This document shows, in pieces, positions 3,403 through 36,464 of a DNA stretch of 38,894 bases (the first letter of the stretch is position 1; the number at the start of each line of letters is the position of its first letter). The position numbers and the translations under genes are program-made. The DNA is from Candidatus Limnocylindrales bacterium. GTDB lineage: Bacteria; Chloroflexota; Limnocylindria; Limnocylindrales; CSP1-4. Below the pieces are notes generated by a model, which was given only the letters and a program-made list of their open reading frames with translations, ran no database searches and had not been told where the DNA came from. Location of the stretch: positions 1-38,894 of the forward strand of contig JBBSGX010000003.1 of the NCBI GenBank assembly GCA_038253685.1, in the 5' to 3' direction.

Positions 3403-3524
3403 CAACGCTCCTCGTCCATGCTCCCGTGCCGGTCCCCGCGCGCGTCCCGGCGCTGCCCTGCGGCGGGTTCGCACGGGCCTCGTTCCCGCCATTCCGCCCA
3501 GGCCGCCGACGTATGCTAGCCGCG

Positions 3525-6866: not shown

Positions 6867-6924
6867 GGCGCGATCGTAGCCGAGGCGCGCGGCCCGGAGA
6901 CGAGGGTCACGGCGACTTGTGCGC

Positions 6925-11265: not shown

Positions 11266-11275
11266 GACAGTGCGC

Positions 11276-12019: not shown

Positions 12020-12072
12020 CGGGAGGGCTCCTCGTCGACGTCGGATCAGATCGCCTGGGATCGCTGGGGAGT

Positions 12073-12630
12073 CTAGCGGTCGGCCGCCCGCGCGCCGAGC
12101 CGCTCGTCTGGCTCAACGGGCGACGAGCTCGCGGGCACGTCTCCGCTGGCGGAATGGGACGCAGGCCGCGCAGCACGCTCATAGACGAGGACCGTGCGCT
12201 CGAATTCGATGACCGTCTCGTCTCGCTGGTTGTAGCCGCGCGTCCGCACCCGAACGATCCCCTGCCCGGGTCTCGACCGGGACGACCGCACTTCGAGCAC
12301 GTCGCTCGAGGCGTACAGCGTGTCGCCGGCGAAGACAGGCGCAGGCAGGCGGACGCTGTCCCAGCCCAGGTTCGCGACCGCGTTCTGGCTCACATCCGGG
12401 ACGCTCAGGCCGGTTACGATCGCCAGCGTCAGGGTGCTCACGACGAGCGGCCGTCCGAATTCCGTGCGAGCCGCGTAGTCGGCGTTGATGTGGATCTGGT
12501 TGGCGTTGCACGTGAGCAGGCTGAACCAGGTGTTGTCGGTCTCGGTGATCGTCCGGCCACTCCGATGACGGTAGGTATCGCCGACCACAAAGTCCTCGAG
12601 GAATCGTCCTTCCCAGCCGTTGGTCGTCAT
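12073..12630 (-). CDS. MaoC-family (hot-dog fold) dehydratase
   Basis: GRFLEDFVVGDTYRH..GRTITETDN, NANQIH, PVFAGDTLYASS, NQRDETV. Confidence 0.92.
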   Translation of the reverse strand: MTTNGWEGRFLEDFVVGDTYRHRSGRTITETDNTWFSLLTCNANQIHINADYAARTEFGRPLVVSTLTLAIVTGLSVPDVSQNAVANLGWDSVRLPAPVFAGDTLYASSDVLEVRSSRSRPGQGIVRVRTRGYNQRDETVIEFERTVLVYERAARPASHSASGDVPASSSPVEPDERLGARAADR

Positions 12631-12634
12631 GGGT

Positions 12635-13924
12635 TCACCTTGCGCCCCGAGACGATTCCGCGGCCAGCTGTGTCGCCTCGTCGGCGGCGATCACCCCGAG
12701 ACCCAGCGCCCGGTCCGGGTCGAATCGGCCATTCGCGACGGCCCTTCGCAGAAGGGCGCGGGCATGCCGGTCGGTTGCACGGTCGGACATGACGCCGTCG
12801 ATCATGGTCGCTCCACGCCCCTCGCCCTCGGCGGCGCTGTAGGCAGCGAGCTTGGCCGCCTCAGCCTCCAGGGCCGACGGCGCGAAGGCAGCATCGAACG
12901 CCAGCAGCACCGCGAAGAGCTGAGCTGGGTGGCCGACCCACTTGCCGGTCATGCCGAGCTCGCGTGCCGTGATCGCATCGTCGTAGACAAGGCGCATCCG
13001 GGCAAGAAACCGCTCGCGGTTGGCCGCGGCGTCCAGGGACGGGTCGCTTACCGGGTAGTCGAGCGTCATGGCGTCGATGGCCGGCACACCCAGTGCCCCT
13101 GCCACCGCCACGATCTCCGCCCGGGCCCAGATCGCCAATGGGTGGTCGGTCGCGATCGTCGGCAGGCTCAGGTCGGCCGAGTAGTCTGCCAGCCCGAAGA
13201 TGAGCGCGCAGGTCCGTGAAGCAGCACGCACCGCGATCTCGGGCAGGCGGGCGGCGGCCCAACCGGACTCGATCAGGAAGGCGACGCGAACCGAGCCGTG
13301 CGCCAGGCCGAGAGCCGCCTCCGCCTGATCGAGGAGGCCGTACAACAGATCGACCTCGTCAGGGTGCTCGACCTTCGGGAAGACGATCCCATCCAGGTTG
13401 ATCTGTCCCGCCGGCGAAGCGGCCGCGACATTCCAGAGCACGGTGTACAGATCGTTGACCGTGCTACCCAACGCGAAGCCGGGGGGACGGAAGAAGCGCA
13501 GGGTGTCCGGGCCGCCGGCCGACCAGTCCGCTTCGGCCACCAGGCGTGCCGCATTGGCAAGCCCACGGGCGATGACGTCCTCGCGAAGGGCCTGCGCGTC
13601 TTCCCCGTCGAGCATCACCAGCGGCGCTCGTCGTGGCGCGTCCAGCAGTTCCTCGACCCATTCCAGGCCGATCTCGAGCCGTTCGGCCAGGTCGGCCGCG
13701 GTCACGCCGAACCGCTCGAGGATCCGCGTCATCGGCGCGGTGCCGCCCTCGATCGCCTTGCGGGCCATCACCTCGTCGCCGGCTGGCGTCGTGAAGTGCG
13801 CCGACTGGCGCAGGTAGCGCAGAGGGAGGTCGGCCCGCAGGCCCGCGAACGACAGCGAGGCCGCCTGCTGCCGCCGCCTGCCGTCGCGAATGTGGTCCTG
13901 GAGCGAGGCCTCGTCGACCGTCAC
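12635..13924 (-). CDS. HpcH/HpaI aldolase / citrate lyase beta-subunit-like (CitE/malyl-CoA lyase family) CoA-ester lyase
   Basis: MLDGEDA, GIVFPKVE, LIES, FGLADYSADL, VPAID, ARELGMTGKWVGHPAQ, GATMIDGVMSD. Confidence 0.85.
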   Translation of the reverse strand: MTVDEASLQDHIRDGRRRQQAASLSFAGLRADLPLRYLRQSAHFTTPAGDEVMARKAIEGGTAPMTRILERFGVTAADLAERLEIGLEWVEELLDAPRRAPLVMLDGEDAQALREDVIARGLANAARLVAEADWSAGGPDTLRFFRPPGFALGSTVNDLYTVLWNVAAASPAGQINLDGIVFPKVEHPDEVDLLYGLLDQAEAALGLAHGSVRVAFLIESGWAAARLPEIAVRAASRTCALIFGLADYSADLSLPTIATDHPLAIWARAEIVAVAGALGVPAIDAMTLDYPVSDPSLDAAANRERFLARMRLVYDDAITARELGMTGKWVGHPAQLFAVLLAFDAAFAPSALEAEAAKLAAYSAAEGEGRGATMIDGVMSDRATDRHARALLRRAVANGRFDPDRALGLGVIAADEATQLAAESSRGAR

Positions 13925-14009
13925 GCCGCGATCGCGATCGGGACCGCCAATGACCCACCTCCTGAGGTGGCGTTCCGTCCACGGCGGAAAGCCCGGGTCG
14001 GAAGGTACA

Positions 14010-14087
14010 ACAAACGATTGTGCGTACGCAACCTGTCTGCGGCTCGTGCTGGTCGTGTTGACAATCGTTTGTTCCTCCGCGTACGTT
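14010..14087 (+). promoter_or_regulatory. Sigma70-type promoter with two LacI-type operators
   Basis: ACAAACGATTGT 14010-14021 and ACAATCGTTTGT 14061-14072 (each one mismatch from palindrome ACAATCGATTGT); TTGACA 14058-14063, 18 nt, TACGTT 14082-14087. Confidence 0.8.
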
Positions 14088-14131
14088 CCTCGCCGTCAGG
14101 CACCGTGAACCAAGCCAGAGGGATCGCCGGC

Positions 14132-14944
14132 ATGGGGGAATTCGACGGCAAGGCAGCGCTGGTCACGGGGGGCGCGCTGGGTATCGGGCGTGGGATCGTC
14201 CGCGCCTTTGCCGCCGAAGGAGCTGGTGTTGCCATCGCGGATGTCAACGCGGAGGCAGCGGAGGTTCTGGCCGCCGAGCTTCGGGCGTCGGGCGCTGTCG
14301 CGGTTGCGGTCGTTGGCGACGTCTCGTCGTCGTCCGACGCCGCACGCATGGTGGCGGAGACCGTGGAAACCCTCGGTCGCCTTGATGTGCTCGTCAACAA
14401 CGCGGGCATCCTGCCAACCGACTGGTATTTCAGGCTGGAGGAGATGCCCGAGGAGGTATGGGACCGGATCCTGGCGGTCAACCTCAAGGGTGCCTTTCTC
14501 ATGTCGAAACATGCCCTGCCTCGAATCCGCGAGACCAACCGAGGCGGGGTCGTCGTCAACATCGCGAGCGTACAGGGGCTCCAGTCGATGCCCGGTGTGC
14601 CGGCCTATGCCGCAAGCAAGGGCGGGCTTCTTTCGCTCACCCGCAGCATGGCCCTCGACTACGCAGCCGAGGGGATCCGGGTGGTCAGTATCTGCCCGGG
14701 CACGATCGACTCGGAACTCGTTCGCGACCTGGCCCGCGCGGAAGGAGGGAACATCGAGTCGAACCTGCGACGCTATGGCTCGTTCCATCCCCTCGGCCGG
14801 ATCGGGCGGCCCGAGGACATCGCGCAGGCGGTCGTCTTCCTCGCCAGTGATCGAGCCAGTTTCATCACCGGGGAATACCTGACCGTCGACGGCGGCTTCA
14901 TGGCCAAGGGCGCATGGGCCTCGAGCGCCGGTGGCGATCCATGA
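14132..14944 (+). CDS. SDR family NAD(P)-dependent oxidoreductase
   Basis: TGGALGIG, ADVN, NNAG, ASVQG, YAASKGG, CPGTIDS. Confidence 0.95.
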   Translation: MGEFDGKAALVTGGALGIGRGIVRAFAAEGAGVAIADVNAEAAEVLAAELRASGAVAVAVVGDVSSSSDAARMVAETVETLGRLDVLVNNAGILPTDWYFRLEEMPEEVWDRILAVNLKGAFLMSKHALPRIRETNRGGVVVNIASVQGLQSMPGVPAYAASKGGLLSLTRSMALDYAAEGIRVVSICPGTIDSELVRDLARAEGGNIESNLRRYGSFHPLGRIGRPEDIAQAVVFLASDRASFITGEYLTVDGGFMAKGAWASSAGGDP

Positions 14945-16080
14945 GCACTCCGGACACCCTCGCCGCCGTCGAAGTCATGACGATCCAGGCGCAGCTTCCG
15001 GCACCGATTGTCTTCGGTGAGTGGATCATGAAGCATCGGGAGTTCGCTCTCGTCCGGGTGACCTCGAAGGCGGGCCTGCGCGGCTACGCCTACACGTTGA
15101 CGCGAGACGGGGCCGTCGCCGAGCAGATCCGCAAGACGATCGCGCAGATCTACGTGGGGACGGCCGTTGGAGAACAGGAGAAGACGTTCACCATCGCGTG
15201 GCGACGGAGCCTGGCGTCGCATGCGGCCGGGATCGGGCTCCGCGCGCTTTCGATCGTGGACCTCGCCTGCTGGGACCTCGTCGCGAAGTCGCGTGACCTC
15301 TCGATCGCCGGCCTGCTGGGTGGCACGAACCAAGCCATGCCGGCCACCGCGATCATCGGCTATCCGCCGGGCACGATGGGTCCCGAAGAGACAGGCGCGC
15401 AGACGGCCCAGCTCTACGCCTCGGGATGGCGGCGATTCAAGGCTCCGATCGCGGCCACACCCGAGCGAACCGCCGCCCGGCTGCGAGCAGCCCGCGCCGC
15501 GGCACCGGATGGCTGGCTGGGCCTCGACGCGGCCTGGGTCTACGACGACGTCGACGTCGCCTCGAGCTTCCTCAACTCGATCGCCGACGTTGGCCTTGGA
15601 TGGTTCGAGGACGTCTTTCCGCCCGGCAACGCCGGCCAGCTCCGACAACTGCGTGAACGTACGACCACGCCGATCGCGATGGGAGACGAGCAGGGCGGCA
15701 TCTACTACCCCGAGGCCCTCATCGCGCTCGAAGCGGTCGATGTTGTCCGTCTGGATCTCACCTGCATGGGAGGGATCACGCAGGGCAGGCGGATCATCGA
15801 TCAGGTTCTCGACGCCGGGCTCGAGTTTGCTCCCCACATGTTTCCGCACATCCACAGTCAGGTCCTCGGTGGGCTCGGATTCCCGGACTCACCGATCGAA
15901 TGGGGGATCCCGTTCACCGGGGTGCACCCGATGGACGACCCGCTCCCCCAGCCGACCATCGTGGCTGGTGGCCGGATGGCCGCGCTCGACGAAGCGCCGG
16001 GCTTCGGGAAGCTCGTCGACGCCGGGTGGATCCGATCCCAGCCACATCTCGATCCGGACGCCATCCTGGACGGCCTCTAG
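14941..16080 (+). CDS. Enolase superfamily, mandelate racemase subgroup (putative acid-sugar dehydratase), paralog 1
   Basis: ALSIVDLACWDL, RRFKAP, LDAAW, WFED, MGDEQ, RLDLT, APHMF, IEWG, PGFG; ATGA overlap with the upstream SDR. Confidence 0.9.
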   Translation: MSTPDTLAAVEVMTIQAQLPAPIVFGEWIMKHREFALVRVTSKAGLRGYAYTLTRDGAVAEQIRKTIAQIYVGTAVGEQEKTFTIAWRRSLASHAAGIGLRALSIVDLACWDLVAKSRDLSIAGLLGGTNQAMPATAIIGYPPGTMGPEETGAQTAQLYASGWRRFKAPIAATPERTAARLRAARAAAPDGWLGLDAAWVYDDVDVASSFLNSIADVGLGWFEDVFPPGNAGQLRQLRERTTTPIAMGDEQGGIYYPEALIALEAVDVVRLDLTCMGGITQGRRIIDQVLDAGLEFAPHMFPHIHSQVLGGLGFPDSPIEWGIPFTGVHPMDDPLPQPTIVAGGRMAALDEAPGFGKLVDAGWIRSQPHLDPDAILDGL

Positions 16081-16584
16081 GTGGGCGGTCGAGTCGAGGC
16101 GCCGGCTGGGGGGTCGCGATGGTCATTCGAGGATGCGCGGACCGGGCGCACCATCGCGCACCCCGGCGCGCGGACGATCGGTCGCGATGAGCACGTCTGG
16201 CTTGCCATGATCTCGAACAACGCGAGCGACCTGCACGCGAACGTCGAATTCGCCCGCTCGACCAGCTTCGGTGAACCGGTCGTTCTCGGCGCGTTGACGG
16301 TGGCCGTGGTCGTTGGCATGGCTGAGCCGCTCGAGTGGGCGCCGGCAGATGCCGCCTTTGCCCGCTCCAGGGGCTGGACCTCGATCCACCTGGCGGCGCC
16401 CGTATTCGGTGGCGACACCCTTCGTGCCGAGTCCCTGATCCTGTCCGTGGCAGCCCTCCCGGACGGCCGCGGAGGGACGGTTCGCAGACGGATCGTGGGC
16501 CGAAATCAGCACGCTGCGGTGGTGGCAACCATCGAGGAAGAACGCCTCGTCACGACTCGCCCTCATAGAACAAAGGATTGTTGA
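16081..16584 (+). CDS. MaoC-family dehydratase (second, divergent)
   Basis: WSFED..GRTIAH..ARTI, NNASDLHAN, FGEPVV, APVFGGDTLRAES, GRNQH. Confidence 0.85.
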   Translation: MGGRVEAPAGGSRWSFEDARTGRTIAHPGARTIGRDEHVWLAMISNNASDLHANVEFARSTSFGEPVVLGALTVAVVVGMAEPLEWAPADAAFARSRGWTSIHLAAPVFGGDTLRAESLILSVAALPDGRGGTVRRRIVGRNQHAAVVATIEEERLVTTRPHRTKDC

Positions 16585-16610
16585 CAATCGTTGGTCCCAG
16601 CGAGTAGGGT
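16570..16610 (+). promoter_or_regulatory. Sigma70-type promoter with two LacI-type operator copies upstream of the ABC transporter
   Basis: ACAAAGGATTGT 16570-16581 and ACAATCGTTGGT 16584-16595; TTGACA 16581-16586, 18 nt, TAGGGT 16605-16610. Confidence 0.78.
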
Positions 16611-16665
16611 GCCGCACGAGCGTGACCGTGCGGCTTGGCCGGGCGCTCGAAAGAGGAGGAGTGCC

Positions 16666-18231
16666 GTGGACCGCGATGCCACGCGGAGATCCGACGAGAA
16701 CATCTCGGATGCCGTGCAGGGGTTATTGGCTGGCCGGGTCAGCCGGCGTGAGTTCATGCGACGGGCAGCCATCCTTGGCCTGTCCGGCAGCGCGATAGGC
16801 GCGATCCTCGCCGCGTGCAGCGGGGCAATCCCCTCGGGCGCGGCCACGGTCGCTCCGGCCTCGGTCGCACCCGCTTCAGTCGCGCCGGCGACGGTGGCTC
16901 CCGCCTCGCTCCCACCGGCCACGGTCGCACCGTCGGCTGCCGGCGCCTACGACCCCATGAAGTACGCGGGGACCAAGCTCAGCATCCTGATGACCGGCAG
17001 CGAGAACGACCACCGGGCGCTGGGCGACAAGGTCGCGGACCTCAAGGCAGCGACGGGGATCGAGCTGACCATCAGCGCGCCGGCGCTCAACGACCTCATT
17101 CCCAAGACCGGCCAGGAACTGGCAGCTCCGCAGTCTGCCTTCGAGATCATCAACTACCTCGGGTTCCTCACGACTGGCTACATGAAGAACGACTCATTCG
17201 AGCAGCTGAACGCCTACAGGGACGACCCCACCCAAACGCCGCCGGACTGGGATTTCAATGACTTCGCGACGGCGAACCTCAACAACGTCGGCATCTTCGA
17301 TCCTGCGAGCAAGTCGATCGGCAAGGGCACCAACCTGTACGGGATCCCCGGCCTTCACAGCGGCTCGGTCGTGTACTTCTACCGGAAGGACCTGTTTGAC
17401 GCCGCGGGCCTCCAGCCCGCGAAGACGTGGGACGACTTCAAGGCCGCCGCCGTCAAGCTGAACAAGCCAGGGGAGGTCGCGGGCTGCAGCTTCATCGGGG
17501 CCAACGACTTCTCGCTGGCCACGGTTTCCTGGTATACGACCTTCCTCACCAGTGGCGGCGTTCTCATGACCGGCAGCCCTGCCACCAAGGACTTCAAGCC
17601 GAACCTCAACAGCCCCGAAGCTGTCAGCGCACTCCAGTTCCTCATCGACCTGCTGCCATACGCTCCCAAGAACGTGACCACCTACGGGTTCCCGGAGAAC
17701 GTCGACGGCTTTTCGTCGGGCAAGATCGCGCAGATGGTCTTCTGGTCGACGATCGCCGGCCCGGTATTCAATCCGGACACTTCAAAGGTCGCCGACAAGA
17801 CCGGGGTGACCCCGGTTCCGGCCGCGCCAGGCAAGACATCCCAGGCGATCCTCGGTGGCTGGGGCGTGGGGATCCCGAAGAACGCAGACCCTGCCAAGAA
17901 GGCAGCCGCGTGGCGGGCGATCACGTGGTTGACCAGCAAGGCAATGAACAACTACGAGGCGGAGAAGTACCAGATCGACGCAAGCCGGAATTCGACGTAC
18001 AACGATCCGGCGCTCGTTGCGAAGTTGCCGTACCTGCCAATCTCAGGTGCGGCGAACGCAGGAGCTCACACGATCGAGATCTCTGTGCTCGATGACTTCT
18101 TCGCCATGAATGCAGCCATGAACGTCGAGTTCAACAAGGCACTCGTCGGTGGGCAAGACGCGAAGACAGCCTGCGCCAACACCCAGACCCAGTGGGAAAC
18201 CTCGCTGCGGAAGGCCGGTGCGCTCGCCTGA
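16666..18231 (+). CDS. CUT1 carbohydrate ABC transporter substrate-binding protein, Tat-exported lipoprotein
   Basis: RBS AGGAGGAG before GTG; SRREFMRR Tat motif, lipobox LAAC; LYGIP, YFYRKDLF, KTWDDF, FSSGKIAQ, GGWGVGI. Confidence 0.93.
   Translation: MDRDATRRSDENISDAVQGLLAGRVSRREFMRRAAILGLSGSAIGAILAACSGAIPSGAATVAPASVAPASVAPATVAPASLPPATVAPSAAGAYDPMKYAGTKLSILMTGSENDHRALGDKVADLKAATGIELTISAPALNDLIPKTGQELAAPQSAFEIINYLGFLTTGYMKNDSFEQLNAYRDDPTQTPPDWDFNDFATANLNNVGIFDPASKSIGKGTNLYGIPGLHSGSVVYFYRKDLFDAAGLQPAKTWDDFKAAAVKLNKPGEVAGCSFIGANDFSLATVSWYTTFLTSGGVLMTGSPATKDFKPNLNSPEAVSALQFLIDLLPYAPKNVTTYGFPENVDGFSSGKIAQMVFWSTIAGPVFNPDTSKVADKTGVTPVPAAPGKTSQAILGGWGVGIPKNADPAKKAAAWRAITWLTSKAMNNYEAEKYQIDASRNSTYNDPALVAKLPYLPISGAANAGAHTIEISVLDDFFAMNAAMNVEFNKALVGGQDAKTACANTQTQWETSLRKAGALA
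16843..16932 (+). repeat. Coding 15-bp tandem repeat, (A-T/S-V-A-P)x6 linker
   Basis: ATVAP ASVAP ASVAP ATVAP ASLPP ATVAP just after the lipobox. Confidence 0.85.
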
Positions 18232-18332
18232 TCGGGTCGAATCGGCGCGGATCATTCTCATCGGTAGTTGAACACGGCCCCGCAGAAGGTCGTGTCCCGT
18301 TGAACCAGGGGGCGAGCAGGCCGGCGCGGTTG

Positions 18333-19205
18333 ATGTCCCGCAACAACCGTGACGTCCTGCTCCTCCTCGGTCCCTGCGTCATCTACCTCGTTGCGTTTTC
18401 GATCTTCCCGCTGCTCTACAGCCTGCGACTCTCATTCACCGACCTCGGAATCGCCAGGACCTCGGGAAACTGGATCGGCCTGGACAACTATGTCGCGATC
18501 TTCCAGGACCCGTTCTTCTGGAACGCTGCCGGCAACACCGCTGTCATGGTGGGGGCCGCCGTATTCGTTCAGGTCGTTCTTGGCGTCGCGTTGGCCCTTT
18601 TCTTCAACCTGGGTCTGCGCGGGTCCTGGTTCGTGCGCGGTGCCCTCATCCTGCCCATGCTGCTCACGCCGATCGTGGTGGGACTCATGTGGCGCGCGAT
18701 GCTCAATCCCGACTGGGGCATCGTCAACTGGGCCATCGACCGGCTGGGTCTTCCGTCCGTCAACTGGTTGGGCTCCACGGAATGGGCAATCCGGACGTTG
18801 GTCATCGCGGACACGTGGCAGTGGACGCCCTTCGTATTTCTCATCGTCTATGCCCGGCTGCAGGCGCTGCCCGAGCACGTCTTCGAGGCAGCCCAGGTCG
18901 ACGGTGCAGGACGGCTGAGCATGCTCCGGCACATCACCATGCCGCTCCTCCTGCCGGCGATCGCCTTCGCAGCCATCTTCCGAGCGATCGACGCGTTTCG
19001 CTCATTCGACCTCGTCTACGGTCTGACGTACGGCGGGCCCGCGCGCACCACGACCACGCTGAGCTTTCTCACCTATCAGCACGGGCGTGACTTCCAGCAT
19101 TACGGCTACGCGGCTGCGATCGCGTATGTGATGGTCGTCATCCTCATCGTGCTTTCCACGATCGCGCTCCGTTTCGTGCGGTTGCGCGGCCAGGAGGGCA
19201 TATGA
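18333..19205 (+). CDS. Carbohydrate ABC transporter permease (MalF-like)
   Basis: WIGLDNY, LPMLLTPIVVGLMW, DTWQWTPF, EAA loop FEAAQVDGA, LTYGGP; start uncertain (TTG 18300 possible). Confidence 0.93.
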   Translation: MSRNNRDVLLLLGPCVIYLVAFSIFPLLYSLRLSFTDLGIARTSGNWIGLDNYVAIFQDPFFWNAAGNTAVMVGAAVFVQVVLGVALALFFNLGLRGSWFVRGALILPMLLTPIVVGLMWRAMLNPDWGIVNWAIDRLGLPSVNWLGSTEWAIRTLVIADTWQWTPFVFLIVYARLQALPEHVFEAAQVDGAGRLSMLRHITMPLLLPAIAFAAIFRAIDAFRSFDLVYGLTYGGPARTTTTLSFLTYQHGRDFQHYGYAAAIAYVMVVILIVLSTIALRFVRLRGQEGI

Positions 19206-20035: not shown

Positions 20036-20064
20036 CCACCCGGGAATCCAAGTCGGAGGCAGCG

Positions 20065-20943: not shown

Positions 20944-21770
20944 TGGTCGACCGGACGCCATTTCCCGGTCTTCACCTGGATGGCTCGATCGCCCTGGTGA
21001 CCGGGGGCGGCTCCGGAATCGGGCGGGAAACCGCACTGACCCTCGCGGACCTCGGGGCGGACGTCGCCGTGTTCGACATCACACCCGGCGCAGCGGAGCT
21101 GGTAGCGGAGCTCGTCCGGTCCGCGGGGCGGCGCGCCATCGCCGTCGAAGGCGACGTCAGCTCGGAGGCGGACGTCCACCGAGCCTTCGAGGCCTGCCGG
21201 GCGCAGCTCGGAGATGTCGACATCGCCGTGGCCTGTGCCGGGATCCTCGGTGACTATCAGCCGATCGACACGACCTCCGTTGAGCACTTCGACGCGGTCA
21301 TGGGCGTCAACGTCCGGGGCGCCTTCCTCGTGATCCGGGAATCGGTGCCGCACATGCGCCGGCGGGGCCACGGCGCCATCATCGTGCTGTCGAGCCTCGA
21401 TGGCCTGCAGGCCGAACCGGGCATGGCGTCCTATTGCACTTCCAAGGGGGCGCTCCTCAACCTCGCCCGGGCCGCGGCCCTCGACCTTGCCCGCGAAGCA
21501 ATCACCGTCAACGCGGTCTGCCCCAGCGTCACGTTCACGCCGCTCCTCGAAGGTCGCCTCGCAACGCTCCCGGATGGCGCGGCGGTGCTGGCATCGTTCG
21601 CCGCGAAACATCCCCTCGGCCGGGTGCTGACCTCCCGCGACATCGCCGCGACCATCGCCTTCCTGGTGTCACCGCTGGCGACCGGCATCACGGGTGCAGC
21701 CGTGCCTGTCGATGCCGGCAAGGGCGCCGCCTGGGACGATTACCAGACGCCACCCTGGCTCAGGCAATGA
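20943..21770 (+). CDS. SDR family oxidoreductase
   Basis: TGGGSGIG, ACAG, SSLDG, YCTSKGA, VNAVCP. Confidence 0.94.
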   Translation: MVDRTPFPGLHLDGSIALVTGGGSGIGRETALTLADLGADVAVFDITPGAAELVAELVRSAGRRAIAVEGDVSSEADVHRAFEACRAQLGDVDIAVACAGILGDYQPIDTTSVEHFDAVMGVNVRGAFLVIRESVPHMRRRGHGAIIVLSSLDGLQAEPGMASYCTSKGALLNLARAAALDLAREAITVNAVCPSVTFTPLLEGRLATLPDGAAVLASFAAKHPLGRVLTSRDIAATIAFLVSPLATGITGAAVPVDAGKGAAWDDYQTPPWLRQ

Positions 21771-22855
21771 GCATGGAACCCGCTCGGCACCCGGAGCTCG
21801 GCGACATCGGCCAGATCGCCGGCGGCAGGTCCGTCCGGCTGCAGGATGGCGTCGAAGACGGCGTTCGGGCCATCGACGTCCGGACCGCCGGAGGGATCCA
21901 CGCGCTCGTGATTACCGACCGCGGCCTGGACATCGGTCCGGCGTGGTACGCCGGCCATCCGCTGGCCTGGCAGTCGCCGACCGGGATCGTGCATCCGTCG
22001 TACTTCAGGGACGACGTCTGGCTCCGATCGTTTCATGGCGGGCTGCTCTTCACGGCCGGCCTCCAGAACGTTGGATCGGCGGTTCGCGACGGCCAGGAGC
22101 AACACGGTCTGCACGGTCGAGTCTCGAACCTGCCGGCCCGGAATGTGAGTGTCCAGACGATTGAGGATGAGCGAGGGCTGGCGGTGCTGGTCCGCGGCGA
22201 GGTGCGCGAGACGAGCGTCTACGGCGTCGATCTGGTGCTTCATCGATCGCTCCGCTTCACCGTCGGCGACCCACGCATCGAACTCACGGACGAGGTCGAG
22301 AATCGCGGCTTCCATCCGGTCCCCGTCTTCCTCCTCTACCACATCAACGTTGGCTACCCCGTCGTGGCCGCCGCGTCCCGTCTCCTGGCTCCTCCAGCCG
22401 ATGTGATCGGCTGGGATGAGGTCTCGCGGGCGGCCGAGCCCGATCACGCCCGCTTCGTTCCGCCAACACCCGGCTTCGCGGTGCAGGTCTTCGAGCACCG
22501 CGTTGCGGCGTCTGCCCCGGATCGGGTCCAGGTCGGGATCGTCAACGAAGCGTACGAGCCGAGCGGCGGAATCGGCCTGGTCGTCGAGTACGACCGGCGT
22601 CAGCTCCCGCGCCTGTGGCAATGGCGAATGCTTGCCGAGGGCATCTACGTGGCGGGTATTGAGCCGGCCAACTGCGGATTGCTTGGGCGTGTCGCCGAAC
22701 GGGAGGCGAACCCGCCCGAGGAGCTTGCGCCCGGCGATCGTCGCGCCTTTGGAGTGACGCTGCGCGCTGCGACCGGGCCAGGGGTCAGCGAGCTGGTGCG
22801 AGAGGCCGGCGCTCGTCCCGGCGATGTCAAGCCCGCAAGAGGAGACCTGCCATGA
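21767..22855 (+). CDS. Aldose 1-epimerase-like protein (DUF4432 / galactose mutarotase-like fold)
   Basis: DRGLDIG, WLRSFHGGLLFTAGL, HGLHGRVSNLPA, LLYHINVGYP, QLPRLWQW, YVAGIEPAN. Confidence 0.88.
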   Translation: MSMEPARHPELGDIGQIAGGRSVRLQDGVEDGVRAIDVRTAGGIHALVITDRGLDIGPAWYAGHPLAWQSPTGIVHPSYFRDDVWLRSFHGGLLFTAGLQNVGSAVRDGQEQHGLHGRVSNLPARNVSVQTIEDERGLAVLVRGEVRETSVYGVDLVLHRSLRFTVGDPRIELTDEVENRGFHPVPVFLLYHINVGYPVVAAASRLLAPPADVIGWDEVSRAAEPDHARFVPPTPGFAVQVFEHRVAASAPDRVQVGIVNEAYEPSGGIGLVVEYDRRQLPRLWQWRMLAEGIYVAGIEPANCGLLGRVAEREANPPEELAPGDRRAFGVTLRAATGPGVSELVREAGARPGDVKPARGDLP

Positions 22856-23658
22856 CGCCGGCCGATGACGGCCTGGAGATTCCCGCCGGATTCGCCAGCG
22901 GCCTGTTCGATCTGCACGACCGTGTCGCCGTGGTGACGGGGGCCGGCAGCGGCCTCGGCGCCGCCATCTCCATCGGCTACGCCCAGGTCGGGGTCAGGCT
23001 CGTCCTGGCCGACATCAACGTAGAAGGCGCCACCGCGACCGCGACCGCCATCCACGAGCAGGGCGGAACAGCCCTTGTCCGCCAGGTGAACGTGACGTCC
23101 AGGGCCGAGGTGGACGCCCTGGCCGACAGCGTCGTCGAGGAGCTCGGTGGGGTCGACATTCTCGTCAACAGCGCCGGCACGGCGTTTCGATCACCCGCCG
23201 AGGAATTCCCCGAGGAACGCTTTGACTTCATCCTTGACCTGAACCTCAAGGGCACCTACCTGTGCTGCCAGGCGTTCGGGCGGAAGATGCTGGCCCAGGG
23301 CTCGGGCAGCATCATCAACCTCGGTTCGATCGGGTCGTTCATCGGCTACCCGTGGGCCAGCGCATACCTCGCTTCGAAGGGTGGAGTGCTCGGCATCACC
23401 CGTGGCCTGGCCCTCGAGTGGCGCAATCGTGGCGTCCGAGTCAACGCGATCGGGCCGACCCTGATGGATTCGCCGCTCACGCGCCAGGCGGCCCAGCGGA
23501 CCTCGCTCACCGCCGATTTCATCAAGTCACGGATGCTTCGCCCGCGGCTGGGGCTGCCCCGCGAGCTGATCGGCGCGGCGATCTTTCTCGCCAGCGATGC
23601 GTCCGAGCTCGTCACCGGGCACACCCTCATGTGCGACGACGGCTATCTGACCGCGTAG
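22852..23658 (+). CDS. SDR family oxidoreductase (gluconate 5-dehydrogenase/KduD-like)
   Basis: LFDLHDRVAVVTGAGSGLG, NSAG, YLASKGG, LALEW, VRVNAIGP, FLASDAS. Confidence 0.93.
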   Translation: MTPADDGLEIPAGFASGLFDLHDRVAVVTGAGSGLGAAISIGYAQVGVRLVLADINVEGATATATAIHEQGGTALVRQVNVTSRAEVDALADSVVEELGGVDILVNSAGTAFRSPAEEFPEERFDFILDLNLKGTYLCCQAFGRKMLAQGSGSIINLGSIGSFIGYPWASAYLASKGGVLGITRGLALEWRNRGVRVNAIGPTLMDSPLTRQAAQRTSLTADFIKSRMLRPRLGLPRELIGAAIFLASDASELVTGHTLMCDDGYLTA

Positions 23659-23671
23659 GGAGGCGACGACG

Positions 23672-24805
23672 ATCACCGACACCGACAAGATCACCCGCGT
23701 TCGCGTCGCGACGATCCTCCACACCCTGGAAGTGCCGATCCATTTCGGCACCTGGGTGATGCGCCATCGCGAGTTCGCCCTCGTCCGGATTGACGCGGAA
23801 AGCGACCTGCGCGGCTTCGCGTACTGCCTGACCAGGGACGGGCCCCTGGCAGCGATCGTGAACCGCACGATCGGTCCCGCCTACGTGGGAGAGCCCGCCG
23901 GAGATCCGGAGCGACTGTTCTTCAAGGCGCTCTGGACGAACAATGCCGTGCACGCGGCCGGAATCGGTATGCGGGCCCTGTCGCTGGTGGATCTCGCGGC
24001 CTGGGATCTCGCGGCCCGCGCGGCCGGCCAGTCGGTGTCCGCCTACCTCGGCGGCGGCCGCGAGCGGATGCCCGTGACAGCGATCGTCGGCTACCCGCCC
24101 TCGATCTCGGCGGAGGCGACGGTCGCGCAGATCGCTGCCCTCTGGACGAAGGGCTGGCGCCGATTCAAGCTCCCGATCGCCCCGACCCAGGATGGTTCGA
24201 TCGAGCGTCTGCGTTCAGCGCGTGAGGCCTATCCCGACGCATGGCTGGGGATCGATGCGAACTTCCTGCACAAGACCGCGGCGGACGCAATCGCGTTTGG
24301 AAAGCGTCTGGATGGCCTGGATATCGGCTGGTTCGAGGACATGGTCCCGCCAGGCGACGCTGCGATGGTGGCGGAGGTTCGAGGTGCGATTGCCACGCCC
24401 GTTGCGATGGGCGACGAGCAGGGCGGCTCATACCATCCTCAGGCCCTGCTGAAATACGACGCTGTCGATGTCAATCGGGTGGACGCCACCACAAACGGCG
24501 GGATCACGCGTCTGCGTCCCATCGCGGCAGCGGTCGCGGCGGCCGGCAAGCTCATCTCCCCTCACATGTACCCGCATATCCACTCCCAGGCGCTCGGGGC
24601 CCTCGGCCATACGCAATCGCCGATCGAATGGGGGATCCCCGGCACCGGCGTCCATCCGATGGACGACAGCCTCGCGCAGCCGGTGGTTCGAGACGGGCTG
24701 ATGGATCCACTGCCGGAATCACCCGGGTTCGGCCATCTCGTGGACCCGACGTGGATCGCATCACAGGCGGTCGTTGACCCCGATGGGCTTCTCGACGACC
24801 TGTGA
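23672..24805 (+). CDS. Enolase superfamily, mandelate racemase subgroup, paralog 2 (probable ATC start; GTG 23732 is the first canonical start)
   Basis: Colinear with paralog 1: RRFKLP, IDANF, WFED, MGDEQGG, RVDAT, SPHMY, IEWG; AGGGAGG 8 nt before ATC 23672. Confidence 0.88.
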   Translation: MTDTDKITRVRVATILHTLEVPIHFGTWVMRHREFALVRIDAESDLRGFAYCLTRDGPLAAIVNRTIGPAYVGEPAGDPERLFFKALWTNNAVHAAGIGMRALSLVDLAAWDLAARAAGQSVSAYLGGGRERMPVTAIVGYPPSISAEATVAQIAALWTKGWRRFKLPIAPTQDGSIERLRSAREAYPDAWLGIDANFLHKTAADAIAFGKRLDGLDIGWFEDMVPPGDAAMVAEVRGAIATPVAMGDEQGGSYHPQALLKYDAVDVNRVDATTNGGITRLRPIAAAVAAAGKLISPHMYPHIHSQALGALGHTQSPIEWGIPGTGVHPMDDSLAQPVVRDGLMDPLPESPGFGHLVDPTWIASQAVVDPDGLLDDL

Positions 24806-24828
24806 ACAGGAAGGAGCGCTCCGTTCCC

Positions 24829-25311
24829 ATGGCTACCATCACACGACCGCATCACGTGGGTCTCCAGGTGCGCGACCTGGAGCGGTCCATGGCGTTCTAC
24901 AGGGACGTGCTCGGTTTCGAGGTCGTATTCGCCTGGAACCCGCAGGCACCGTACGTCGGCGAGCTGGTCGGCTATCCCGAGGTGGACCTTCACTCGGCGA
25001 TCCTGCGGCCGCCGAACTCCGAGGTCTTCCTCGAGCTGCTCGAATACCGGAACGTGGAACGCACGCCCATCGACACTCGCACCGCGAACCCGGGCACCGC
25101 GCACACCGCGTACTTCGTGGACGACCTCGACGCACTGTACGCGGAGCTCGTAGCGAAGGGCGTGGATTCGGTCTCCGCGCCTGTGACACCGACGATCGGC
25201 CCCAACAAGGGCGGTCGCGCGGTCTACATGATCGATCCGGACGGGATCCGCGTCGAGCTCATTCAGTCGAAAGTCTCATTCTCCGAGTACGCCGCGGAGC
25301 AGGGCCGATGA
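24829..25311 (+). CDS. VOC/glyoxalase family protein (methylmalonyl-CoA-epimerase-like metal ligand pattern)
   Basis: PHHVGLQVRDLERS, LELLEY, AHTAYFVDDL, DPDGIRVELIQ; RBS AAGGAG. Confidence 0.9.
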   Translation: MATITRPHHVGLQVRDLERSMAFYRDVLGFEVVFAWNPQAPYVGELVGYPEVDLHSAILRPPNSEVFLELLEYRNVERTPIDTRTANPGTAHTAYFVDDLDALYAELVAKGVDSVSAPVTPTIGPNKGGRAVYMIDPDGIRVELIQSKVSFSEYAAEQGR

Positions 25312-26609
25312 CCGACGAGGCGACTGCCGCCCGGCCCGGGCCGCGCGCCACCCCCGGCGCTGATCCCGCCTCGCCGGGACCGTTGAGCGGGCTGCGGGTC
25401 ATTGATGCCGGGGTGCTGTTCGCTGGCCCGGTGATCGGGACGCTCCTCGGCGACTTCGGCGCGGACGTCATCAAGGTCGAGCACCCACGCGGCGACGCGC
25501 TGCGCACACTCGGCTGGCAGAAGAATGGAGTCTCTCTGTGGTGGGCGTTCGTCAGTCGCAACAAGCGATTGGTATCGCTCAACCTCAGCACCGCCGCGGG
25601 AGCCGATCTCCTGAAGGAGCTGATCGCCGACGCCGATGTCCTGATCGAGAGCTTCCGTCCGGGAACGTTCGAGCGTTGGGGCCTGGGTCCCGATGTGCTG
25701 CACGCCATCAACCCGCGCCTCGTGATCGTGCGCACGAGCGGGTTCGGTCAGACCGGCCCCCAGAGCCTGCGCCCGGGGTTCGGGACGGTCGCCGAATCGA
25801 TCAGCGGCTACGCGCACATCAACGGGCAGCCCGACGGTCCGCCGACGCTCCCTCCATTCGCTCTCGGGGACGGCGTTGCCTCGCTCTTCGGAACGTTCGC
25901 CACCATGTTCGCGCTGTATCACCGCGACATGCACCATGCGCCGGGACAGGTGATCGACCTGGCAATCTACGAACCCCTGTTCTGGATCCTTGGCCCGCAG
26001 GCGCTGGTTTACGACCAGCTCGGGATCGTTCAGGGCAGGACCGGCAGCAGCACCGAGTGGACGGCCCCACGCAACGCCTACCGAGCCAGTGATGGGCGAT
26101 GGTTCGGCCTGTCTGCAAGCTCGCAGTCGATCGCAGAACGGGTGATGAACCTCGTCGGGCATCCGGAGGTCACGGCTGAGCCGTGGTTCGCCGACCACAC
26201 CGGCAGAATCCTGCATCGCAGGGAGCTCGACGTCCTCATCGGCGGCTGGATCGCGGAGCACACCGGCGCCGAGGTGATGACGGCCTTCGAGGCTGCCGAG
26301 GCAGTCATCGGACCGATCTACTCGATCGCCGACATCTTCGAAGATCCCCAGTACCTCGCTCGGGAGACGATCACGACCGTCGACGATCCGAAGCTTGGCC
26401 GCGTCCGGATCCAGAACGCGATCCCCCGCCTCTCCGACACGCCCGGGAAGGTGCGCCATCTCGGCGGCGACCTCGGCCAGCACAACCACGAGATCCTCGG
26501 CCGGGAGCTTGGCCATTCGGATGAGGAGCTCGAACGCTGGCGTTCGACTGGCGCGATCGGCGGCCGGGACGCGATGGCGCCGGCGCATCCCGACGGAGGC
26601 GAGGCGTGA
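25308..26609 (+). CDS. CoA transferase family III (CaiB/BaiF)
   Basis: GPLSGLRVID, AGP, LGDFGADVIKVEHP.GD..R, RNK, ADVLIESFRPG, SGFGQTGP, catalytic-type LGDG, GQVIDLA. Confidence 0.95.
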   Translation: MTDEATAARPGPRATPGADPASPGPLSGLRVIDAGVLFAGPVIGTLLGDFGADVIKVEHPRGDALRTLGWQKNGVSLWWAFVSRNKRLVSLNLSTAAGADLLKELIADADVLIESFRPGTFERWGLGPDVLHAINPRLVIVRTSGFGQTGPQSLRPGFGTVAESISGYAHINGQPDGPPTLPPFALGDGVASLFGTFATMFALYHRDMHHAPGQVIDLAIYEPLFWILGPQALVYDQLGIVQGRTGSSTEWTAPRNAYRASDGRWFGLSASSQSIAERVMNLVGHPEVTAEPWFADHTGRILHRRELDVLIGGWIAEHTGAEVMTAFEAAEAVIGPIYSIADIFEDPQYLARETITTVDDPKLGRVRIQNAIPRLSDTPGKVRHLGGDLGQHNHEILGRELGHSDEELERWRSTGAIGGRDAMAPAHPDGGEA

Positions 26610-26658
26610 GTGCGCCGGCGAACGCGCGCGCCATCCTCAGTGCTGGGCGTGTGGAGCG

Positions 26659-27699
26659 ATGCCGAACCTGAAGGACGTTGCCCGCGCGGCCGGCGTGGAC
26701 CCGTCAACCGCCTCGCGCGTGCTTCGCGGCGATCCCCGCCAGGCTGTCCGCGCTGACACGCGCGAACGAATCCACGAGGCCGCCCGAACGCTCCAGTACC
26801 GACCCAATGCGCTTGCACGCGGCCTTCGGACCCGGCGCACGGACACGATCGGTCTGGTGATCCCCAACCTCGACAACCTCGGGTTCAGCGAGGTCCTGCA
26901 TGGGATCCAGGCTGCTGCCGCGGAGGCGGGCAAGCTCGTGATCATCGTCGAGGCCGATTCTCTGCGGCGAATCCGGCACGGAAGCACCGAGCACTACGCG
27001 CGCCTGATCGCTGACGGACGGGTCGACGGTCTGATCGTCGCCTTCGCGACGCTCGAAGATGACGTGGTTGCGCAACTTGCCGAACGCGCGCTCCCGCTGG
27101 TCCTCGTCAACCGACGAACCGTCGGCGTCCATGGCTCGGTCGTGGTCGATGATGAAGCCGGCAGCATGCAGGCGGTACGCCACCTGATCGAGTTGGGACA
27201 CAGGCGGATCGGGTTTGTGGGACTCGAAGCCGATACGGACACCGCGCGGCGACGCGAGCGGGGATATCGACGGGCGATGGAGGTCAGGCACCGGGCGATC
27301 AGACGCGAATGGGTGGTCACGGCGCCCCCGACCGAAGACGGCGGGCACGACGCGATCGGGAGGCTCCTTGCCGAGACATCGGCTGACCGCCCGACGGCTG
27401 TCTTCGCGGCGAGCCTGCTGGGGGCGATGGGGGTCCTGGCTGGAATGCGCGAGGCCGGCTTGGCGATACCCCTCGACATGTCCCTCATCGCGTTCAACGA
27501 CCACCCGCTGGCGGCTCACATGGCGCCGCCGTTGACGACCATTCGCATGCCGAATCTGCGCATGGGCCAGGAAGCAGTCCGAATGCTCCTTCGAGCCGTC
27601 GAGGGCGAGTCCGTCCAGGATCGCATGATCGAGGACACGCCGGAGCTCGTGGTAAGGGCTTCGACCGGGCCACCACCAGCGCAGCACTCCCCCCGGTGA
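26659..27699 (+). CDS. LacI family transcriptional regulator
   Basis: LKDVARAAGVDPSTASRVL HTH, YRPNALARGL hinge, GHRRIG, PTAVF, PPLTTI. Confidence 0.96.
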   Translation: MPNLKDVARAAGVDPSTASRVLRGDPRQAVRADTRERIHEAARTLQYRPNALARGLRTRRTDTIGLVIPNLDNLGFSEVLHGIQAAAAEAGKLVIIVEADSLRRIRHGSTEHYARLIADGRVDGLIVAFATLEDDVVAQLAERALPLVLVNRRTVGVHGSVVVDDEAGSMQAVRHLIELGHRRIGFVGLEADTDTARRRERGYRRAMEVRHRAIRREWVVTAPPTEDGGHDAIGRLLAETSADRPTAVFAASLLGAMGVLAGMREAGLAIPLDMSLIAFNDHPLAAHMAPPLTTIRMPNLRMGQEAVRMLLRAVEGESVQDRMIEDTPELVVRASTGPPPAQHSPR

Positions 27700-27832
27700 T
27701 CCCCGCGCCCACGTAGACGGTCCGCTCGACACAACGGTGACCGGCCTGGCGCATCGAATGGCGCACGCCGTGCCCGCCACTGGTGTTCGCAGGAGCACGG
27801 CGCCGGTTGCGCGCGTCCGGTAGGGTGCGGCC

Positions 27833-34066: not shown

Positions 34067-34081
34067 GATCGCCCCTACAGC

Positions 34082-34707: not shown

Positions 34708-34917
34708 CTATATCTCCCCTTGATGACGGCCTCGCGGGGCCCGTGGTCCCCCAGCGGTGGCTCTTATACCACGAACCCTGCCGCCAGCCCTGGTGCCCGA
34801 TATCTCGTCCCTCGATGACGGCTATGCGGGCCCGTGGCCCCGGCGCCGGGTCCAATACTACGAATCCTGTCGCGGGCCCGGGCTGGCGTCCGCATCACCC
34901 CGGCTACCATGCGGCAC

Positions 34918-35628: not shown

Positions 35629-35647
35629 CGTCGATGCCGGAGCGACC

Positions 35648-36421: not shown

Positions 36422-36464
36422 CCGCTGCAGGCCTGGGACCGCCCTCCCGTTAGACTTGGCGACG

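Follow-up and report, generated by a model that had tools for sequence, protein, structure and literature searches.

Gene content and organization

The window analyzed here is a 38,894-nucleotide stretch of DNA (approximately 68% G+C) from a Candidatus Limnocylindrales bacterium (assembly GCA_038253685.1, contig JBBSGX010000003.1, positions 1 to 38,894 of the forward strand). Its positions 12073–27699 hold a gene cluster in which genes for a sugar-type importer and candidate sugar-oxidizing enzymes are mixed with genes for a CoA-transferase, two acyl-CoA hydratases and a C–C lyase. Because of the high G+C content of the window, genes were chosen by third-position G+C (GC3-guided calling of open reading frames, ORFs) and checked against Pfam and NCBIfam scans. 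Sixteen genes fill the interval exactly:

12073–12630, minus strand: MaoC-A, an acyl-CoA hydratase of the (R)-hydratase type with one domain, paired with the lyase
12635–13924, minus strand: HpcH/CitE-like lyase of 429 amino acids, a divergent C–C lyase of predicted malyl-CoA-lyase/CitE fold
14132–14944, plus strand: SDR1, a short-chain dehydrogenase/reductase, candidate aldose or polyol dehydrogenase
14941–16080 (longest ORF from 14914), plus strand: enolase-superfamily protein 1, with MR_MLE N and C domains
16081–16584, plus strand: MaoC-B, a second MaoC-type hydratase, within the sugar operon
16666–18231, plus strand: CUT1 solute-binding protein (SBP_bac_1) with a long N-terminal linker
18192–19205 (start uncertain: 18192, 18300 or 18333), plus strand: ABC permease 1 (BPD_transp_1), UgpA/GlcT-like
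19202–20035, plus strand: ABC permease 2 (BPD_transp_1), GlcU/MalG-like
20065–20943, plus strand: SMP-30/gluconolactonase-family lactonase (SGL)
20943–21770, plus strand: SDR2 (adh_short_C2, 197.6 bits)
21767–22855, plus strand: DUF4432 protein, aldose-1-epimerase-like, candidate mutarotase (PF14486, 291 bits)
22852–23658, plus strand: SDR3, GolD/DthD- and KduD-like (Pfam/NCBIfam)
23672–24805 (first canonical start GTG at 23732), plus strand: enolase-superfamily protein 2, with MR_MLE domains
24802–25311, plus strand: VOC/glyoxalase-fold metalloenzyme, candidate isomerase or acyl-CoA epimerase (Glyoxalase, 68.9 bits)
25308–26609, plus strand: family III (CaiB/BaiF) CoA-transferase (CoA_transf_3, 367 bits)
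26659–27699, plus strand: LacI-family repressor (LacI HTH and Peripla_BP_3)

An earlier reading of this DNA, made from its letters alone (the sequence-only reading), had assigned all of these gene families correctly but had counted 15 genes, although its own list adds up to 16. Overlaps of 4 nt occur at six junctions (SDR1/enolase 1, permease 1/permease 2, SDR2/DUF4432, DUF4432/SDR3, enolase 2/VOC and VOC/CoA-transferase), the lactonase and SDR2 genes overlap by 1 nt, and the enolase 1 and MaoC-B genes abut; the translational coupling read from the sequence is therefore real. The sugar genes and the genes of the CoA module (CoA-transferase, both MaoC hydratases, lyase and VOC protein) are interleaved. 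MaoC-B lies between enolase 1 and the binding-protein gene, its start one base past the enolase 1 stop and ahead of the transporter genes, and the VOC and CoA-transferase genes come after enolase 2. The lyase and MaoC-A genes are on the minus strand, divergent from the plus-strand sugar genes, with a gap of 207 bp between lyase and SDR1.

Pfam gave no match to sugar kinase, DHDPS, FAH or aldehyde dehydrogenase families among the 16 cluster products, in agreement with the absence of a sugar kinase and of a DHDPS-type aldolase reported before. Likewise, no CUT1 ATPase was matched within the cluster by Pfam, and no search was made elsewhere in the genome; CUT1 systems commonly use a shared ATPase encoded elsewhere.

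Conservation of the gene neighborhood

Adjacency was counted over 100 comparison loci from genomes and metagenomes, 50 own or duplicate loci having been left out. A contig from a Limnocylindrales metagenome-assembled genome (MAG), L001, carries 15 of the 16 genes in the same order with 74–92% amino-acid identity, the LacI gene falling beyond the contig end. Because so many genes recur in order, the cluster is more than a chance assembly. Enolase 1 is followed by MaoC-B in 13/13 loci and enolase 2 by the VOC gene in 7/7; SDR1 precedes enolase 1 in 11/12, SDR3 precedes enolase 2 in 8/10, and the lyase precedes MaoC-A in 61 of 64 loci. The step from MaoC-B to the binding protein is weaker (7/11).

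Both modules are kept despite rearrangements among the related loci. The DUF4432 gene is relocated between SDR1 and enolase 1 in some loci, a second ABC system is inserted beside the lyase in some, and a split E2, described below, is present in some and absent in others. One locus (L028) carries a PTE-family lactonase gene and a distant DUF4432 gene and gave no SMP-30 match. In another Chloroflexota MAG (L004, 5200–11330), an insertion of approximately 6 kb separates the VOC and CoA-transferase genes; two of its ORFs were tested and had no Pfam match.

Among 36 genomes of the same genus, 10 have enolase 2, and the CoA-transferase and the lyase occur in 12 each; 22 lack all three genes. Every one of the 10 genomes with enolase 2 has a CoA-transferase ortholog and 8 have the lyase; the two that lack it are 74% and 80% complete. 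The neighboring family, sampled in 24 small genomes, yielded none of the three genes. No statistic was attached to this pattern because the kin are not independent. Five lyase-positive genomes were checked again, and each has one CoA-transferase ortholog with 77–81% identity. Co-occurrence of the sugar and CoA modules had been named beforehand as a test of their linkage, and the two were indeed found together in other genomes and contigs.

In one copy of the cluster from the same genus (L027; G015:C9:419000–438900), most sugar genes were recovered only as fragmented, low-identity tblastn pieces, with a TGA in the enolase 2 match, and the lyase, MaoC-A and CoA-transferase look intact; judged from these matches, it looks like a decaying sugar module.

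LacI repressor and a predicted operator

The LacI-family protein consists of an HTH_LacI domain and a periplasmic-binding-like effector domain (Pfam), and its orthologs adjoin the CoA-transferase gene in L028 and L104. Four sites resembling the palindrome ACAAWCGWTTGT are present in two regulatory gaps of the window, two in each:

14010–14021, no strand: predicted LacI-type operator ACAAACGATTGT, in the gap between the divergent lyase and SDR1 genes, 0 mismatches to ACAAWCGWTTGT
14061–14072, no strand: second predicted operator ACAATCGTTTGT, in the same lyase–SDR1 gap, 0 mismatches
16570–16595, no strand: two adjoining predicted operators ACAAAGGATTGT and ACAATCGTTGGT, in the MaoC-B/binding-protein gap, 1 mismatch each

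With up to two mismatches allowed, the window has 5 sites where 0.98 are expected, a number reached in 0 of 100 shuffles. Among 13 related loci examined, the palindrome occurs with at most one mismatch in 7 of the 9 that are sugar-linked and in none of the 4 lyase loci without sugar genes. The site lies 57–170 bp from the start of the lyase or lipoyl-E2-lyase operon in six of the seven positive loci. It is also found ahead of the binding-protein gene in related loci, with the position of 16570–16595 matched in L063, L071, L117 and L122. We infer that the LacI protein would bind ACAAWCGWTTGT, and the cluster is probably under a single regulator.

A shorter motif, the 10-mer TTGACAATCG, was replaced by the full palindrome; it gave 4 sites with at most one mismatch, a count reached in 3 of 100 shuffles. 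A third exact copy of TTGACAATCG at 7061–7070 (minus strand) lies in the 5' part of an MFS transporter ORF (6919–8607), and the full palindrome is not present there.

Proteins of the sugar module

The assignments on the sugar side are at the level of families. SDR1 (adh_short_C2, 222 bits) exceeds the NCBIfam subfamily model "glucose 1-dehydrogenase" (258.8 bits, cut-off 215), which is a generic SDR model and not an equivalog. SDR3 matches the GolD/DthD model with 216 bits, below its cut-off of 286, and KduD with 191.6 bits. The lactonase matches SGL/SMP-30 with 88.8 bits (cut-off 26.3), which is a family-level assignment only. The sole solved relative of the DUF4432 protein is 3ty1, a "hypothetical aldose 1-epimerase" (97.6 bits), and nothing relevant to this family was found in the open-access and bioRxiv literature searched.

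The binding protein (SBP_bac_1, 99 bits) starts at a GTG at 16666, preceded by GAGGAGGAG. Its solved relatives (5iai, MalE3, the trehalose/maltose-binding protein, the sorbitol-binding protein 4rya and SmoF) all align to residues approximately 111–465; their ligands are disaccharides, sorbitol or sulfoquinovosyl-glycerol and indicate no ligand here.

Enolases 1 and 2 are paralogs with 52% identity, and both are distant from all characterized members of the superfamily, the best matches being galactarate/talarate dehydratase, the 4ggb protein and anhydrogalactonate cycloisomerases (<105 bits). The best NCBIfam model is ManD for enolase 1 (73 bits, cut-off 550; no equivalog) and L-talarate/galactarate dehydratase for enolase 2 (104 bits, cut-off 500). 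The best solved relatives are 3bjs and 5olc for the former (<80 bits) and 4ggb and 2pp0 for the latter. By eye, both sequences contain residues that might be the metal ligands and the Lys and His-Asp set, the motif positions being assumed from general knowledge of the superfamily. The named relatives of enolase 2, among 991 at E ≤ 1e-30, belong to Chloroflexi/Limnocylindria.

For enolase 1, a start at the ATG at 14941, which overlaps the stop codon of SDR1, agrees with the N-terminus of enolase 2. Enolase 2 probably starts at a non-canonical ATC at 23672, because the GTG at 23732 is the first ATG, GTG or TTG codon after the upstream stop (window 23659–23734), its homologs are 377–378 amino acids long, and the 20 codons from the ATC align with enolase 1; a GGAGG lies 9 nt upstream of this ATC. 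A third enolase paralog, 40–44% identical to enolase 2, is present in some genomes of the genus (G017:C12:5825–6871, G007:C57:3067–4113, G003:C49:7096–8142 and G031:C146:658–1704), and in G007 it shares a contig with the CoA-transferase gene.

Enzymes of the CoA module

The lyase matches HpcH_HpaI (64.4 bits), DUF6986 (60 bits) and MS_TIM-barrel (40.4 bits) in Pfam. The DUF6986 (PF22484) match exceeds its cut-off of 27 bits and covers only profile positions 167–394 of 408. A search with PF22484 over 301 Chloroflexota genomes returned mainly ordinary CitE-like genes of approximately 320 amino acids through partial matches, with 0 matches in 14 control genomes, and is of little use for orthology. 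An N-terminal extension of approximately 95 amino acids is conserved in an alignment of 22 family members. The profile of this alignment aligns to the malyl-CoA/β-methylmalyl-CoA lyases 5ugr and 4l9y in both halves, through LD.ED, PKV, ..E(S/T) and FG.ADY in the first and GKW..HP.Q and G.GA...G...D.A in the second, and these residues are invariant among the 22 members. They fall in what is the catalytic region of that family, in which the C-terminal GKW.GHP.Q region of malyl-CoA lyase forms the lid over CoA.

An AlphaFold model of the lyase (pLDDT 88.5) predicts a TIM barrel with a C-terminal lid as in malyl-CoA lyase and CitE. Its best Foldseek matches are the malyl-CoA lyases 4l9z and 4l9y (E 1e-13, TM(target) 0.76–0.77), 5ugr and 4l80. 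The order of matches runs from the Rhodobacter, Methylobacterium, Chloroflexus and Roseiflexus malyl-CoA lyases to CLYBL, citramalyl-CoA lyase, CitE and malate synthases, with identities of 16–25% overall and 19–22% to malyl-CoA lyases. The lyase stays below the NCBIfam equivalogs for malyl-CoA lyase (65.6 vs. 500), citE (43.7 vs. 443) and Ccl (NF038242; 62.1 vs. 375). By its sequence, it belongs to a separate, new subfamily within a known fold. Its named relatives, among 760 at E ≤ 1e-10, are from Chloroflexota.

MaoC-A matches MC_hydratase (76.6 bits, profile positions 20–172 of 353) and MaoC_dehydratas (74.1 bits), and its best solved relatives are the β-methylmalyl-CoA dehydratase 8hgn and the Chloroflexus protein 4e3e (127 bits). 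It is not a fused double MaoC of approximately 350 amino acids: it has 185 residues and matches residues 5–170 of the 356 in 8hgn. MaoC-B (MaoC_dehydratas, 36.2 bits) is a paralog with 38% identity to MaoC-A. Neither reaches the RipB/Ich equivalog NF038241 (198.9 bits for MaoC-A and 56.9 bits for MaoC-B, cut-off 340). The CoA-transferase matches succinate-glutarate CoA-transferase best (201.5 vs. 750), followed by formyl-CoA transferase and succinyl-CoA:mesaconate CoA-transferase, with 4ed9 and SUGCT (9br7) as solved relatives; it resembles the dicarboxylate-type family III enzymes, below every model cut-off. The VOC protein has weak, non-discriminating matches to glyoxalase I, methylmalonyl-CoA epimerase and extradiol dioxygenases.

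The lyase-hydratase pair in other contexts

In many relatives, the lyase gene directly follows a split E2, in which the lipoyl domain is a small protein of its own and the 2-oxoacid-dehydrogenase acyltransferase (E2 catalytic) domain is encoded apart from it. Examples are found at L063 9070–10004, L057 3396–4451 and L074 651–1765, usually without adjoining E1 or E3 genes; an E1 beta-subunit-like gene lies nearby in L057. The window has no trace of the split E2 in the lyase–SDR1 gap (13925–14131), and L001 retains a 45-amino-acid lipoyl remnant of it. In several loci, as at L074 1770–3239, an ORF of approximately 490 amino acids lies between the E2 domain and the lyase; its one Pfam match is weak (neutral ceramidase N-terminal domain, 33 bits), and L066, L069 and L083 have gaps of approximately 1.5 kb at the same position.

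The genome of the window (G000) contains a second lyase and MaoC-A copy (69% and 81% identity) on the 2.6-kb contig C316 (L035), and an E2-catalytic-domain homolog, 56% identical to that of L063, on the short contig C318 (L143). These pieces may represent a second, E2-linked trunk locus that is poorly assembled. At L057 and L059, the pair adjoins enolases of 26–28% identity, SDRs, VOC proteins and a CoA-transferase of 28% identity. On this comparative evidence, we read the lyase–MaoC-A pair as a putative trunk fed by several upper modules; that the E2 acts on the 2-oxoacid product of the lyase is a guess.

Flanking genes and host organism

One flank of the cluster contains purine-nucleoside-phosphorylase-family and luciferase-like genes, and the other an OpuA-type betaine ABC system followed by F420-biosynthesis genes. 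The ATPase at 27833–29080, which has a CBS domain, is part of this neighboring OpuAC-type (glycine-betaine-type) transporter. Since the flanking genes are unrelated, the limits of 12073–27699 given in the sequence-only reading hold. A scan for promoter and terminator consensus sequences over 11000–29000 gave 0 promoter-like sites and was uninformative; its 2 terminator-like sites both fall within a permease gene, and shuffles give more.

Further out, a ROK-family gene lies at 3426–4496. Homologs of cofD, cofC and F420:γ-glutamyl ligase together with two luciferase-like monooxygenases flank the cluster (32440–36421, 10414–11265 and 36456–37382), and by their homology the host probably both synthesizes F420 and uses it. 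At 2–2626 on the minus strand, the left edge of the window cuts off a homodimeric-type pyruvate/2-oxoacid dehydrogenase E1 gene (PDH_E1_M, Transketolase_N); unrelated genes lie in the approximately 9.4 kb between it and the cluster, and it is probably a housekeeping gene.

The host assembly comprises 2.84 Mb in 398 contigs, is 81% complete and has the window as its contig C3. The closest public loci are from Limnocylindrales/Chloroflexota MAGs, and the sequencing runs that contain the stretch are labeled soil or sediment metagenomes, with no RNA run listed among them. The host is a soil member of the Chloroflexota, a Limnocylindria-like MAG.

Discussion

The gene families, their order and its conservation, the phyletic co-occurrence and the shared palindrome are established directly, and the fold of the lyase is established from a model. 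The interleaving of the genes, the conserved neighborhood, the phyletic pattern and the palindrome link the two modules and support the view that they belong together. The sequence-only reading had gone further and proposed one pathway. The part of this claim that joins the two modules is borne out by their co-occurrence, their interleaving and a shared predicted operator, and the part in which a sugar-derived acid would be the molecule that is CoA-activated and cleaved is a proposal from enzyme families. With these points in mind, we think it reasonably likely that the cluster is one LacI-controlled catabolic locus through which an imported neutral sugar or polyol would be converted to an acid and finished as a CoA ester.

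We infer every reaction of such a scheme, and the order of its steps, from family chemistry. Uptake would be by the CUT1 ABC system, and the mutarotase-like DUF4432 protein could equilibrate the anomers. An SDR would then carry out an NAD(P)-dependent oxidation to a lactone, the ring of which would be opened by the SMP-30 lactonase. The remaining SDRs could oxidize the product further, and β-elimination by one or both enolases would lead to a dicarboxylic acid with a hydroxy group, an oxo group or a double bond. This acid would receive CoA from the family III transferase; as the CoA ester, it would have its stereochemistry or keto-enol state adjusted by the VOC enzyme, be (de)hydrated by the MaoC hydratases and finally be cleaved by the malyl-CoA-lyase-like enzyme to an acyl-CoA and glyoxylate or another 2-oxoacid. 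In favor of such an ending, the cluster has no aldolase, kinase, FAH hydrolase or aldehyde dehydrogenase gene by which an oxidative sugar route could be finished otherwise.

Malyl-CoA-lyase-type enzymes cleave 3-hydroxyacyl-CoA esters with a carboxylate on the hydroxylated β-carbon and release a 2-oxoacid. A straight-chain sugar acid offers such a cleavage only as a C4 dicarboxylate, and any longer skeleton therefore needs a branch. For a linear pathway with a canonical lyase, the substrate would be a branched C5 sugar or polyol (apiose-like or 2-C-methyl-tetrose/tetritol-like) or a C4 sugar or polyol, and the expected intermediate would be a substituted malyl-, citramalyl- or β-methylmalyl-type CoA ester. 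The sequence-only reading had likewise suggested that the sugar might be branched-chain. A more specific proposal, which we put forward only tentatively and consider rather doubtful, is that plants or the atmosphere supply a branched C5 sugar or polyol (D-apiose, say, or a 2-C-methyl-tetrose/tetritol) for which the cluster encodes an undescribed CoA-dependent route. The paralogous enolases would act here as dehydratases to give a substituted malate or fumarate, which would be CoA-activated, epimerized by the VOC protein, hydrated and split by the new lyase subfamily. The common trunk for several lactone- or acid-forming upper pathways of Limnocylindria would be the lyase–hydratase pair, in many cases together with a split E2 that stands alone. 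As primary models, straight-chain schemes (double dehydration of an aldarate, CoA esters of 2-keto-3-deoxy-acids, or oxidative decarboxylation to a 3-hydroxyacyl-CoA) were rejected because none gives a substrate for malyl-CoA-lyase-type cleavage; they may apply if the lyase chemistry differs or the E2-linked route matters.

No description of this enzyme combination was found in the open-access and bioRxiv literature searched, in line with the earlier remark that the combination was not recognized as a described pathway, and the cluster appears to unite known folds in an undescribed combination. Known non-phosphorylative oxidative sugar pathways include the Weimberg and Dahms pathways and the diketo-hydrolase routes for L-rhamnose and L-fucose. 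They are finished by an aldolase, by a second dehydratase together with a semialdehyde dehydrogenase, or by a 4-dehydrogenase together with an FAH hydrolase. The front end of the cluster resembles them in its succession of candidate dehydrogenase, lactonase and candidate enolase-superfamily dehydratase, accompanied by a sugar-type repressor and an ABC importer. However, the 16 products of the cluster have no Pfam match to a DHDPS aldolase, FAH hydrolase/dehydratase or 2-oxoglutarate-semialdehyde dehydrogenase, and CoA enzymes stand where the known finishing enzymes would be.

On the CoA side, the same three families (family III CoA-transferase, single-domain MaoC and CitE-fold lyase) form the Ict/Ich/Ccl module of itaconate degradation (see PMC12290011). 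The enzymes of the cluster are far below the Ich and Ccl equivalog cut-offs given above, the 429-residue lyase has an N-terminal extension, a second MaoC and a VOC protein are present, and the CoA genes sit in an operon for sugar uptake and oxidation. The best neighbors of the lyase and MaoC-A are found in malyl-, β-methylmalyl- and citramalyl-CoA lyase and mesaconyl-CoA hydratase systems (4l9y, 4l80, 6kin, 5ugr, 8hgn and 4e3e), and the lyase aligns with malyl-CoA lyases around the presumed metal site and in the C-terminal region. Such lyases and hydratases act in the 3-hydroxypropionate bi-cycle, the ethylmalonyl-CoA pathway and the methylaspartate cycle, the last of which also pairs an enolase-superfamily enzyme with such a CoA trio. 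The cluster differs in the low identity of its lyase (19–22%), in a hydratase with a single 185-residue domain rather than a fused double domain, in enolases that are of the MR_MLE type and not methylaspartase, and in a context of imported-sugar catabolism rather than carbon fixation or acetate assimilation.

Only one precedent was found for the conversion of a sugar to an acid and then cleavage at the level of the CoA ester. Oxidative catabolism of deoxyribose and deoxyribonate ends in acetyl-CoA and glyceryl-CoA, by way of a β-keto-acid cleavage enzyme or of a CoA synthetase, a 3-hydroxyacyl-CoA dehydrogenase and a thiolase, and a CoA-transferase is encoded in the cluster of the Klebsiella michiganensis variant (Price et al., 2019; PMC6365646). 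As described there, the route has no enolase-superfamily, MaoC or CitE-fold enzymes. Catabolism of D-apiose and D-apionate likewise starts a branched-chain pentose with oxidation to the aldonic acid, but runs via the ApnO oxidoisomerase, and the word "dehydratase" does not occur in the paper on that route (PMC13753588). No ApnO-like enzyme was detected in the cluster. To our knowledge, CoA esters are not part of the known apiose routes.

Several observations weigh against a single pathway. The lyase–MaoC-A pair is not exclusive to the sugar module but behaves as a portable unit. Among 12 metagenome loci chosen for a lyase at least 60% identical and at least 8 kb of upstream sequence, 7 have these enolases; in the other 5, their place is taken by a PTE lactonase, by other SDRs or by an ABC ATPase. 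In one genome (G023), a 48%-identical lyase is accompanied by three other CoA-transferases, and the sugar genes are missing. The lyase lies behind the split E2 in 19 of the 33 loci with at least 3 kb upstream, including the close relative L063, which hints at a link to a 2-oxoacid dehydrogenase that the scheme explains only loosely. The VOC and CoA-transferase genes adjoin in only 3/7 loci, and two of the nine sugar-linked loci are without an operator at ≤1 mismatch. The scheme does not explain one by one what the second enolase, the third SDR, the VOC protein and the second MaoC are for. None of the enzymes reaches an NCBIfam equivalog cut-off, and no substrate can be assigned for this reason; NCBIfam, PDB-sequence and Atlas searches gave none for any enzyme. 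Finally, the comparison loci are all from one class, mostly MAGs and metagenome contigs, and are not independent, and the gene order could be due in part to shared ancestry.

A rival explanation is that one regulon serves two chemistries. The sugar route would be self-contained, its product cleaved by an enzyme encoded outside the cluster or by an unassigned one, and the CoA module would only assimilate a small by-product (glyoxylate or glycolate, for instance) by way of malyl- or β-methylmalyl-CoA. An analogy for this arrangement is the half of the Chloroflexus 3-hydroxypropionate bi-cycle that assimilates glyoxylate, and the structural neighbors of the lyase include the trifunctional Chloroflexus and Roseiflexus malyl-CoA lyases. 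Moreover, the lyase–MaoC-A pair is more conserved than the sugar genes (71–88% identity for MaoC-A) and is reused beside other upper modules, as expected for a trunk that handles a common small intermediate, and the frequent neighboring E2 fits the handling of 2-oxoacids. Nonetheless, the cluster contains no aldolase, hydrolase or aldehyde/glycolate dehydrogenase to make such a by-product, and the CoA-transferase scores just 49 bits on the intramolecular mesaconyl-CoA transferase model. The position of MaoC-B and the CoA-transferase inside the sugar operon, with MaoC-B next to enolase 1 wherever the adjacency was counted, is also tighter than a general assimilation module would call for. We regard this explanation as unlikely, though one to be taken seriously.

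Alternatively, the 429-residue protein might be a class II (HpcH/HpaI-type) aldolase which splits a 2-keto-3-deoxy sugar acid into pyruvate and an aldehyde, the CoA genes being accessory. The HpcH/HpaI family does include 2-keto-3-deoxy-acid aldolases, HpcH_HpaI is the best Pfam match of the protein, and an activity of this kind would supply the aldolase step that the cluster lacks by comparison with a conventional non-phosphorylative pathway. All close neighbors in sequence and structure, however, are CoA-ester lyases or synthases (malyl-CoA lyase, CitE, CLYBL, citramalyl-CoA lyase and malate synthase), the C-terminal GKW.GHP.Q region aligns to its malyl-CoA lyase counterpart, and an acyl-CoA hydratase gene directly follows in nearly all loci, so that we consider an aldolase improbable. 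That the modules are functionally unrelated neighbors, held together only by shared ancestry within Limnocylindria, is very improbable: the comparison loci do come from one class and the lyase pair does occur in other contexts, but the genes are interleaved and translationally coupled, both modules survive several rearrangements, their presence within one genus is patchy but concordant, and the palindrome is found only in sugar-linked lyase loci.

In summary, Limnocylindria-like Chloroflexota are uncultured, and the binding protein, the LacI repressor and its predicted operator would, if the cluster encodes one pathway, offer an entry point to the question of which sugar these organisms use. 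A single pathway would also represent a third way of finishing oxidative sugar routes, by cleavage of a CoA ester as against aldol cleavage or dehydration to 2-oxoglutarate, and would give first functions to DUF4432 and to the DUF6986-related lyase subfamily. If only the regulon link is real, the cluster would still show how a portable hydratase–lyase trunk is recruited to different upper pathways.

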